Assembly: GCA_964576135.1 (NCBI GenBank)
Contig: CAZNTZ010000001.1
Location: 5,792-69,791, forward strand
DNA: 64,000 bases
Direction of reading: 5' to 3'
DNA from: an uncultured Muribaculaceae bacterium
GTDB lineage: Bacteria > Pseudomonadota > Alphaproteobacteria > Rs-D84
In this document: positions 11,639 through 12,379 of the stretch, piece by piece
Layout: the number at the start of each line of letters is the position of its first letter
How positions within the stretch are numbered: position 1 is the stretch's first letter
Notes under the pieces: generated by a model
Seen by the model: only the letters and a program-made list of their open reading frames with translations
Databases searched by the model: none
Told to the model about the DNA's origin: nothing
Translations under genes and position numbers: made by a program

Positions 11639-11664
11639 TTGACAAATAATATATTTGGTATAAT
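11639..11664 (+). promoter_or_regulatory. putative sigma70-type promoter (TTGACA ... TATAAT) for the Fic-like gene
   Basis: TTGACA at 11639-11644 and TATAAT at 11659-11664. The spacer is short (14 nt); an alternative -10 TAATAA gives 16 nt. The ATG at 11675 would then be nearly leaderless. Confidence 0.3.
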
Positions 11665-11674
11665 AATTATAAAC

Positions 11675-12379
11675 ATGACAAAGATTAACTGCAATAAACA
11701 AGCAATTGAAGACAATAAAAATATCATTACAAATATGATAAGCGGTGACAATATTGCAAAATGTTTATATATTTCTTTTGTAAAGCAATTATTCCAAACA
11801 GAAAGCAGAACATTGTTTCCAAAAAACATGAATTCACATGAAATTACTTTCAAATTAGATTACACAAATATTCAAAATCAAATTACTGCTTTTAATTATA
11901 TCCTTACAAACAAAAATACGCCTATTGATCATTTTGAAGTAAGACATATCCACAGAATTATCTGTAAAGATACACATATCCCAGGTGGTGAAACCCGACG
12001 CAGCGAAGCCAGAATGCAAGGATTACTTAACTTGAACCCGCCTTCTCCGACAAAAATAGATCAATTACTTGATAATTTGTGTTTTCATTTGAATAACGAT
12101 AAAGATGCGCCTGTTTTTGAAAAAGCGTTTTCTATGCACTATAACATCATAGAGATGCAACCTTTTAATGATTTTAATAAAAGAACCGCCAGATTAATAA
12201 TGAATTGGATTCTGATTCATAACGATTATACACCGATTATATTTAATCATACTTCTGACAAGAAAGATTATATTGATGCGATTGCTTCGAAAAAATATGA
12301 TAAAAATTTTTATCGCGATTTTATGATATGTTCTATGATACGTTCCCAACAAGATATTATCAAAGTTATTTCCAGATAA
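11675..12379 (+). CDS. Fic/Doc-family protein with degenerate active-site motif (QPFNDFNKRTAR)
   Basis: Fic core-motif region ...SMHYNIIEMQPFNDFNKRTARLIMNWIL aligns to H-x7-HPFx[DE]GN[GK]RxxR with H to Q and G to F. The ORF track starts it at TTG 11639; the ATG at 11675 (MTKINCNK) is more likely. Confidence 0.6.
   Translation: MTKINCNKQAIEDNKNIITNMISGDNIAKCLYISFVKQLFQTESRTLFPKNMNSHEITFKLDYTNIQNQITAFNYILTNKNTPIDHFEVRHIHRIICKDTHIPGGETRRSEARMQGLLNLNPPSPTKIDQLLDNLCFHLNNDKDAPVFEKAFSMHYNIIEMQPFNDFNKRTARLIMNWILIHNDYTPIIFNHTSDKKDYIDAIASKKYDKNFYRDFMICSMIRSQQDIIKVISR

Follow-up and report, generated by a model that had tools for sequence, protein, structure and literature searches.

The stretch of DNA analysed here, called the window below, comprises 64,000 nucleotides of contig CAZNTZ010000001.1 (positions 5,792 to 69,791, forward strand; assembly GCA_964576135.1) and belongs to the alphaproteobacterial order Rs-D84 of the Genome Taxonomy Database (GTDB). 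At 11675..12379 on its plus strand, stop codon included, lies a gene for a single-domain protein of 234 aa with the Fic fold, in which a glutamine occupies the position of the catalytic histidine. The gene stands between two genes on the minus strand, one for an M23/EnvC-like protein and one for the S41 peptidase CtpA, as a preliminary description made from the letters of the window had noted; the same description called the product Fic/Doc-like, considered its motif degenerate and took the gene for an insertion. Our analysis shows that the product is an intact, cytoplasmic, single-domain Fic-fold protein, and that it belongs to a conserved family. Across this family, the alignments show that the putative active site has changed as a whole: Gln stands in place of the catalytic His, Phe or Tyr in place of the first glycine of the anion hole (Gly1) and Lys in place of the second (Gly2), and the auto-inhibitory helix motif is deleted.

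A Fic fold with glutamine at the catalytic position

The open reading frame (ORF) extends over 11639..12379 of the plus strand. Because the TTG at 11639 begins with the first base of a TTGACA -35 box, we take the ATG at 11675 as the start that is almost certainly used, which gives a predicted product of 234 aa. The NCBI protein P0001 is identical to the window protein and also has 234 aa, and the N-terminus MTK... is common to the window protein and its homologues.

The Pfam Fic family (PF02661) matches residues 84-180 with 62.3 bits against a cut-off of 24 (E 8.2e-17). An AlphaFold2 model built with 37 homologues as input has a predicted local distance difference test score (pLDDT) of 92.1 and a predicted template modelling score (pTM) of 0.89, and contains the alpha4-loop-alpha5 element of Fic proteins as a helix (147-161), a loop (162-167) and a second helix (168-182), with pLDDT 95-98. 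When the model was compared with the PDB by Foldseek, the top matches were FICD, C. elegans Fic-1, BT_2513 and SoFic (probability 1.00, template modelling score, TM, 0.7-0.78), the best E value being 1.8e-9 for FICD (TM 0.71-0.78). The proposed Fic/Doc-like identity, including the fold that structure prediction was to verify, is thus well founded. Every specific NCBIfam Fic family scored below its cut-off: DOC_P1 (TIGR01550) reached 22.4 bits against 38.65, XopAC/AvrAC 26.2 against 450, and the SoFic equivalog, whose expected architecture is a protein of ~360 aa containing a helix-turn-helix (HTH) domain and not a 234-aa single domain, 18.1 against 550.

The active-site helix-loop-helix HYNIIEMQPFNDFNKRTARLIMNWIL, delimited from the alignments and the model (residues 155-180; 12137..12214, plus strand), contains the signature Q162-P-F-N-D166-F167-N168-K169-R170-T-A-R173 (12158..12193, plus strand). 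Three independent alignments, namely phmmer against FICD, MAFFT with canonical relatives and hhalign of family profiles, all pair Gln162 with the catalytic His, Phe167 with Gly1 and Lys169 with Gly2, and no register in any of them puts a His at the catalytic position. The hhalign match between the Gln-family profile and the canonical class II-like relatives is strong (probability 99.9, E 3.6e-35). Both glycines of the Gly-Asn-Gly anion hole are therefore replaced, by Phe167 and Lys169 and invariantly across the family, and the Asp/Glu, the Asn and the two Arg of the motif are kept as the invariant D166, N168, R170 and R173. These alignments agree with the preliminary reading of Gln for the catalytic His, Phe for the first Gly and a Doc-type NKR. 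That reading was also right that the upstream His is kept (His155, invariant in the family together with the flap landmarks) but not in its spacing, which is H-x6-Q and not H-x7.

The flap, where Fic proteins dock their targets, corresponds to residues 97-124 (HIPGGETRR...NPPSP; 11963..12046, plus strand) in both the alignment and the model. Its GGxxR and P123 landmarks are conserved, and in the homologue alignment it is the most indel-rich part of the family; in the model it contains no helix, residues 114/120 form a beta-bridge, and the pLDDT falls to 77.

Conservation and covariation of the motif

A search of 5.8 billion proteins returned 36 homologues of ~240 aa that share 32-43% identity with the window protein, and in the alignment of these 37 sequences Q162, F164, D166, F167, N168, K169, R170, R173, M176, N177 and W178 are invariant. 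When one genome per GTDB species was scanned, relatives turned up in 127 species, and 80 genomic loci were fetched from such relatives. The pattern Q-[PLA]-F-x-D-[FY]-N-K-R-x-x-R is present in 80/80 of these loci as well as in 37/37 database homologues, and the Q/[FY]/K reading holds for all 81 sequences formed by the loci and the window. The codon of Gln162, CAA, is one transversion away from a His codon, yet His occurs in no sequence of the family. In the databases, the members are named only 'Fic family protein' or 'hypothetical'.

When the family profile was run against 1.84 billion cluster representatives, 39 clusters had E < 1e-30, all Gln-type, although P0064, which scores best among the canonical HPFxDGNGR proteins, lies just inside this band at E 5.4e-45. 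At weaker scores, more Gln-type proteins follow, mixed with class II-like proteins of the canonical HPFxDGNGR kind. In a wider set of 165 representatives, the residues at the His position and at Gly2 change together: H/G is found in 85 and Q/K in 74, Q/G in a single protein and H/K in none. At Gly1, the 75 Gln-type representatives have Phe (48), Tyr (11), Cys (5), Ala (3), Gly (3) or other residues (5). A rough neighbour-joining tree, calculated with the three motif columns masked, places 66 of these 75 in one pure clade.

The remainder of the protein changes quickly. Pairwise identity, averaged over the 38 loci that contain all four genes, is 56% for the Fic protein vs 84% for CtpA, 74% for EnvC and 76% for TyrS, and where CtpA is at least 90% identical the Fic proteins are ~70% identical. 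The Fic protein has an evolutionary rate two to three times that of its neighbours. Variation and indels are concentrated in the N-terminal helices and the flap, and the active-site loop is frozen. The ratio of nonsynonymous to synonymous substitution rates (dN/dS) is ~0.08 for closely related pairs, a value that is indicative only as dS is saturated (>1.4). The gene is under purifying selection.

Because the motif is invariant and covaries as a unit across the 165 relatives, and because the gene is under purifying selection, these comparisons show that the Q..F..NKR site, as judged from sequence, is re-modelled and actively maintained and not decayed. The preliminary description had predicted a degenerate motif and the loss of canonical AMPylation. 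Its second half stands, since such activity is not expected of this protein; the word degenerate does not fit a motif with this history.

Class II ancestry and the missing auto-inhibitory segment

In the canonical relatives, the N-terminal region reads ...LTY-SNAIEGNTLTR-ET... and bears the class II inhibitory (S/T)xxxE(G/N) motif. In the Gln family, both MAFFT and hhalign (profile A1 vs A2) open a 12-column gap that deletes exactly the SNAIEGNTLTR segment; in the window protein, the site of this ~12-residue deletion is Thr42-Glu43-Ser44 (11798..11806, plus strand). A cis inhibitory helix had been suggested as a feature to look for, and no (S/T)xxxE(G/N) motif is found elsewhere in the 234 aa. 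Glu43 is nearly invariant and was considered as a cis inhibitory Glu; we rejected it, as MAFFT and hhalign put it on the Glu of the downstream 'ET'.

The closest homology of the family is to class II members, both in hhalign and among the PDB matches, which FICD and SoFic lead, and this shows that the family derives from class II (FICD/SoFic-like) Fic proteins. Two metagenomic proteins, P0141 and P0161 (QAFFDGNKR and QPFRDGNKR, respectively), are distant Gln-type Fic proteins that retain the IEGN segment. It is possible that they represent evolutionary intermediates between canonical class II proteins and the Gln family.

Genomic position and history

Upstream, the Fic gene is divergent from ctpA (10199..11551, minus strand), which encodes an S41 C-terminal processing peptidase with a PDZ domain (TIGR00225, 364.6 bits), and the two share a 123-bp intergenic region. 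Downstream, it is convergent with the M23/LytM coiled-coil EnvC-like gene (12383..13453, minus strand; Peptidase_M23, E 1.9e-13), with a 3-nt gap between the stop codons. The EnvC-like protein has long coiled coils and scores 46 bits against the EnvC equivalog cut-off of 270. With only the 123-bp spacer, which holds nothing but the promoter, and the 3-nt gap beside it, the gene has no small partner or antitoxin ORF at the window locus, as the preliminary description had observed, and none was found in the non-syntenic relatives.

The relatives belong to Candidatus Enterousia and other uncultured gut Alphaproteobacteria of the order Rs-D84, whose genomes are below 1 Mb and for which a fermentative metabolism, the loss of most biosynthesis and, as a proposal, a partner-dependent lifestyle have been described (PMC12306168). 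In 74 of the 80 related loci the Fic gene is divergent from ctpA, with the gene for pyruvate:ferredoxin oxidoreductase (PFOR) beyond it, and envC and tyrS lie downstream wherever the fetched flank reaches that far. The window is roughly equidistant from these relatives (PFOR 72-83% identical, mostly 72-77%; CtpA 65-73%), and this near-equidistance, together with its lower GC content at third codon positions (GC3; 0.27 vs 0.41), marks the window organism as a separate lineage of the same group.

The Fic gene has a total GC content of 0.29, compared with 0.38-0.42 around it, and this is an effect of amino-acid composition: its GC3 of 0.265 lies within the 0.25-0.28 of its neighbours, and in the relatives the corresponding values are 0.41 and 0.40-0.42. 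No relatives were found on IMG/VR viral contigs, and plasmid and phage records hold only generic Fic proteins that match the window protein partially and at no more than 35% identity. The synteny, the GC3 and the absence of viral, plasmid or phage relatives imply that an insertion, if there was one, is at most ancient and was fixed before the group radiated. The insertion between envC and ctpA proposed earlier thus fails as a recent horizontal event, which we reject on the same grounds, and our data show vertical chromosomal inheritance of the Fic gene at a fixed ctpA/envC site across Rs-D84. The proposal had drawn on an adjacency of envC and ctpA, for which we found no usable literature support in Alphaproteobacteria.

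Promoter and transcript

A putative sigma-70-type promoter occupies 11639..11667 on the plus strand, with the -35 box TTGACA at 11639-11644, a 17-nt spacer and the -10 box AATAAT at 11662-11667. It matches 11/12 positions, is the best such site in the region and ends 7 nt 5' of the ATG, so that the transcript is probably leaderless or nearly so. A promoter abutting the ATG had been described before, and it is indeed there; the TATAAT then chosen as the -10 box (11659-11664) leaves a spacer of only 14 nt, and AATAAT is the better choice. Upstream of the gene, an element TTGACAAAT...TAnnnT is found in 61 of 71 full-length homologue loci. In those 61, the median distance from the -10 box to the ATG is 26 nt, and the leader carries a Shine-Dalgarno-like motif (GGAG/GGGG) in 52; a distance of 6-7 nt occurs only in the window and in locus L060. 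The leaderless mRNA proposed earlier is thus plausible for the window genome, going by promoter position, and is not a trait of the family.

Antisense to the promoter and to the beginning of the Fic gene runs an ORF of 85 aa (11596-11853, minus strand). As its Ile/Phe-rich product is what would be expected from the reverse strand of AT-rich coding DNA, we treat it as a chance ORF.

Relation to known Fic systems

A class of Fic proteins with Gln in place of His was recognized in silico as clade D2, which groups 45 single-domain bacterial proteins with the consensus Qx[F|Y]x[D|E][G|V]NKR (Khater & Mohanty 2015, Sci Rep 5:10804, PMC4454073). Its authors considered these proteins not to be dead enzymes but to be retained by selection, with a function that was unknown (PMC4454073). 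The window protein (QPFNDFNKR) shares with D2 the Gln for His, F/Y at +2, D/E at +4 and NKR, and both are single-domain and bacterial. However, D2 has Gly or Val at Gly1, where the window family has Phe or Tyr, and D2 was placed in the Doc clade, whereas the window family keeps the flap and is nearest to class II FICD-like proteins, which sets it apart from D2 as described in that publication. Proteins that fit the D2 consensus (QPFADGNKR, QAFFDGNKR) occur only as distant relatives outside the main clade. Because of the Phe/Tyr at Gly1, the retained flap and the FICD-like affinity, we treat the family as a new variant and not as a member of D2.

The class II Fic AMP-transferases (human FICD/HYPE, C. 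elegans Fic-1, Shewanella SoFic, Bacteroides BT_2513) provide the best sequence and structure matches and have the same order of helices. In common with them, the window protein has the flap landmark GxxR, HY upstream of the motif, D/N/R/R within it and D-[KR]-x-x-Y downstream. In contrast to them, it lacks the catalytic His, both motif glycines and the inhibitory (S/T)xxxE(G/N) segment, and TPR, HTH and further accessory domains are absent from it.

Doc, the death-on-curing kinase of phage P1 (HxFx[D/N][A/G]NKR), keeps the catalytic His, lacks the beta-hairpin flap, has ~125 aa and is paired with the antitoxin Phd; the side chain at its Gly2 position inverts ATP. The window protein is similar to Doc in having NKR for NGR and no cis inhibitory helix, and by analogy the canonical nucleotide pose should be excluded in it as well. 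It differs from Doc in that it scores below the TIGR01550 cut-off, has no partner gene, has Gln for His and has a flap; no Doc chain is among its PDB matches. NKR has been described as the signature of the Doc kinase (Castro-Roa 2013, as cited in PMC4454073).

Among the Bartonella effectors, BepC and Bep8 likewise combine the Fic fold with a non-canonical motif; in Bep8 the signature motif is degenerated to PFxxGNE, and its Gly2 side chain is said to preclude triphosphate binding (PMC8401265). However, the Beps are class I, multi-domain FIC-OB-BID effectors that a type IV secretion system delivers, and BepC keeps its catalytic His (H146 in the BepC structure; PMC8401265). The window protein, in contrast, consists of one domain, bears no delivery signal and has Gln at this position.

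Possible functions

The reading that we favour, and hold to be fairly probable, is that this conserved Gln-type family of the Fido fold, kept at a fixed site and re-modelled in its active site, is non-AMPylating and serves a phosphate-ligand function on an intracellular partner. Canonical AMPylation by the window protein is very unlikely: with no general base and a Gly2 side chain blocking the canonical nucleotide pose, base-assisted transfer of the canonical kind should not take place, and neither an inhibitory helix nor an antitoxin would then be needed. That D, N, K, R and R never vary suggests that a phosphate-bearing ligand would still be bound, and an endogenous intracellular partner would dock on the flap. 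The activity that we favour would be a Doc-like, inverted-nucleotide phosphoryl transfer or hydrolysis, in which the Gln would position the nucleophile; a close alternative would be a nucleotide-dependent, non-catalytic binding switch. The gene would be transcribed from its own conserved sigma-70 promoter, probably as a leaderless mRNA in the window genome.

Several points weigh against this proposal. We infer the chemistry purely by analogy, and the PDB holds no solved structure of a Gln-type Fic protein (full-length and motif-segment searches) from which it could be read. As Doc cannot do without its His (H66), a kinase of the Doc type that has Gln would need to act in the absence of a base. 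Nucleotide binding might even be blocked entirely by the bulky Phe/Tyr at Gly1, and a pure binding role would then be favoured. Moreover, nine Gln-type representatives fall outside the main clade of the tree, so that a single origin of the Gln/Lys motif is not established. Finally, fast evolution and an indel-rich flap could mean an externally directed role, and the saturation of dS makes the dN/dS that speaks for constraint a rough one.

A variant that we put forward tentatively is that the Gln-type proteins are active enzymes with a chemistry new to the Fido fold, in which Gln162 and Lys169 would act as a pair. The pair could hold water or a non-hydroxyl acceptor in place for hydrolysis or for the transfer of a phosphoryl or nucleotidyl group, in analogy to the catalytic Gln of GTPases, and the enzyme, being without auto-inhibition, would act constitutively on a core cellular target. 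If true, this would account for the retention of the gene in almost all genomes of a lineage that has discarded most of its metabolism.

Somewhat less likely still, in our view, is a pure pseudo-enzyme, in which the Fic fold would be a non-catalytic binding or scaffold module without ligand chemistry, comparable to the FIC domain of BepC that binds GEF-H1. The loss of the catalytic His and the replacement of both anion-hole glycines are what such a module would show; the lost auto-inhibition is consistent with there being nothing to inhibit, and Phe or Tyr at Gly1 could fill the nucleotide pocket. A scaffold, however, has no obvious need for the invariant Asp, Asn, Lys, Arg and Arg of a phosphate loop among proteins with 32-43% identity, which stays fixed while the rest of the surface drifts, and the strict covariation of Gln and Lys resembles a functional pair. 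If the variable part is given more weight than the fixed one, the protein could be imagined as a secreted or translocated effector against a host or partner cell, its flap tracking a fast-evolving external target. The evolutionary rate, two to three times that of the neighbouring genes and highest in the flap, would fit this idea, as would the repeated conversion of Fic domains into effectors (PMC8401265), the partner-dependent lifestyle proposed for Rs-D84 (PMC12306168) and the mildly basic C-termini of the family (K-S-[KR]-x-L). Still, we regard it as improbable: the 234-aa single domain carries neither a signal peptide nor BID or another delivery domain, no secretion-system genes were seen nearby, though none were searched for, the context is one of housekeeping genes at a fixed position, and dN/dS is well below 1.

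The two remaining explanations have little left to support them. A recently inserted, horizontally acquired orphan toxin of the Doc/FicT type, or a SoFic-like single-gene anti-phage defence, between envC and ctpA would account for a gene on the strand opposite both neighbours with a total GC of 0.29 vs 0.38-0.42, for the Doc-like NKR, for weak PADLOC matches to SoFic and PDC-S04 (~55 bits) and for the variable slot that adjoins the gene in relatives. It is largely refuted, and we give it very little credence, by the synteny in 74/80 loci, the neighbour-like GC3 (0.265 vs 0.25-0.28), the absence of viral, plasmid or phage relatives and of an antitoxin ORF, and the scores of DOC_P1 (22.4 vs 38.65) and SoFic (18 vs 550). 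The PADLOC scores are those of any generic Fic domain, and a defence-system assignment was rejected for that reason. A decaying pseudogene or mis-called ORF could be suspected where AT-rich DNA gives long chance ORFs and the motif is off consensus; intact full-length orthologues in >100 species, a highly significant Pfam match, a confident fold model and purifying selection refute it, and its probability is negligible.

Fic enzymes are defined by their catalytic His, and here a large and strictly conserved family always has Gln instead, always accompanied by a Doc-like Lys, a bulky anion-hole residue and the loss of the auto-inhibitory helix, a combination which argues that the Fic fold supports a further, uncharacterised function. 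In silico work of 2015 had pointed to the Gln/NKR class, which has had no follow-up since. For this class, the present family offers a clean test set of single-domain orthologues, with natural variation, the back-mutations Q162H, F167G and K169G, and the IEGN-bearing intermediates. In addition, few regulatory-type proteins are conserved in the Rs-D84/Enterousia symbionts, which are poorly understood, and this protein is one of them; it has been retained at one locus in gut bacteria whose genomes are below 1 Mb.

Neighbouring genes in the window and in related loci

In 37 of 48 related loci, a gene for an APH/choline-kinase-like phosphotransferase of ~308 aa lies between the Fic gene and envC, for example at 6726-7661 (plus strand) of locus L002 (Pfam APH, E 3e-7; HGDLNSGN...IDF motif). 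It is usually co-directional and 12-30 bp downstream of the Fic gene, and inverted in 8 loci; the two genes possibly form an operon in the relatives. The APH-like gene is absent from the window locus and from 8 further loci, and tblastn found no copy of it in the 64-kb window. An obligatory coupling of the Fic protein to this phosphotransferase is unsupported, since the gene is absent or inverted in several loci.

Between envC and tyrS, the window contains two plus-strand genes, one for a Cys-rich protein of 194 aa with a hydrophobic N-terminus and no Pfam match (13476-14060) and one for CarD (14137-14703). In the Enterousia loci, envC abuts tyrS and a homologue of the 194-aa protein (39-52% identical) lies beyond PFOR, which indicates a local rearrangement. 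Locus L008 (1945-5018) departs from the conserved block by an inversion or rearrangement: its tyrS, envC and Fic genes share one strand, envC immediately precedes the Fic gene, and neither ctpA nor PFOR follows. Another locus, L032 (CAVGNU010000010.1), is titled 'Bacteroides fragilis isolate H07647-L1_cleanbin_000047' and bears an alphaproteobacterial PFOR-ctpA-Fic block whose products are 73%, 66% and 38% identical to those of the window, respectively, values like those of the Enterousia loci; the contig was probably mis-binned or mislabelled.

In the window, ctpA is adjoined by a gene for a NifJ-type pyruvate:ferredoxin/flavodoxin oxidoreductase of 1176 aa (6463-9993, minus strand), which is 72-83% identical to the Enterousia copies and fits the fermentative, respiration-less metabolism reported for Rs-D84.

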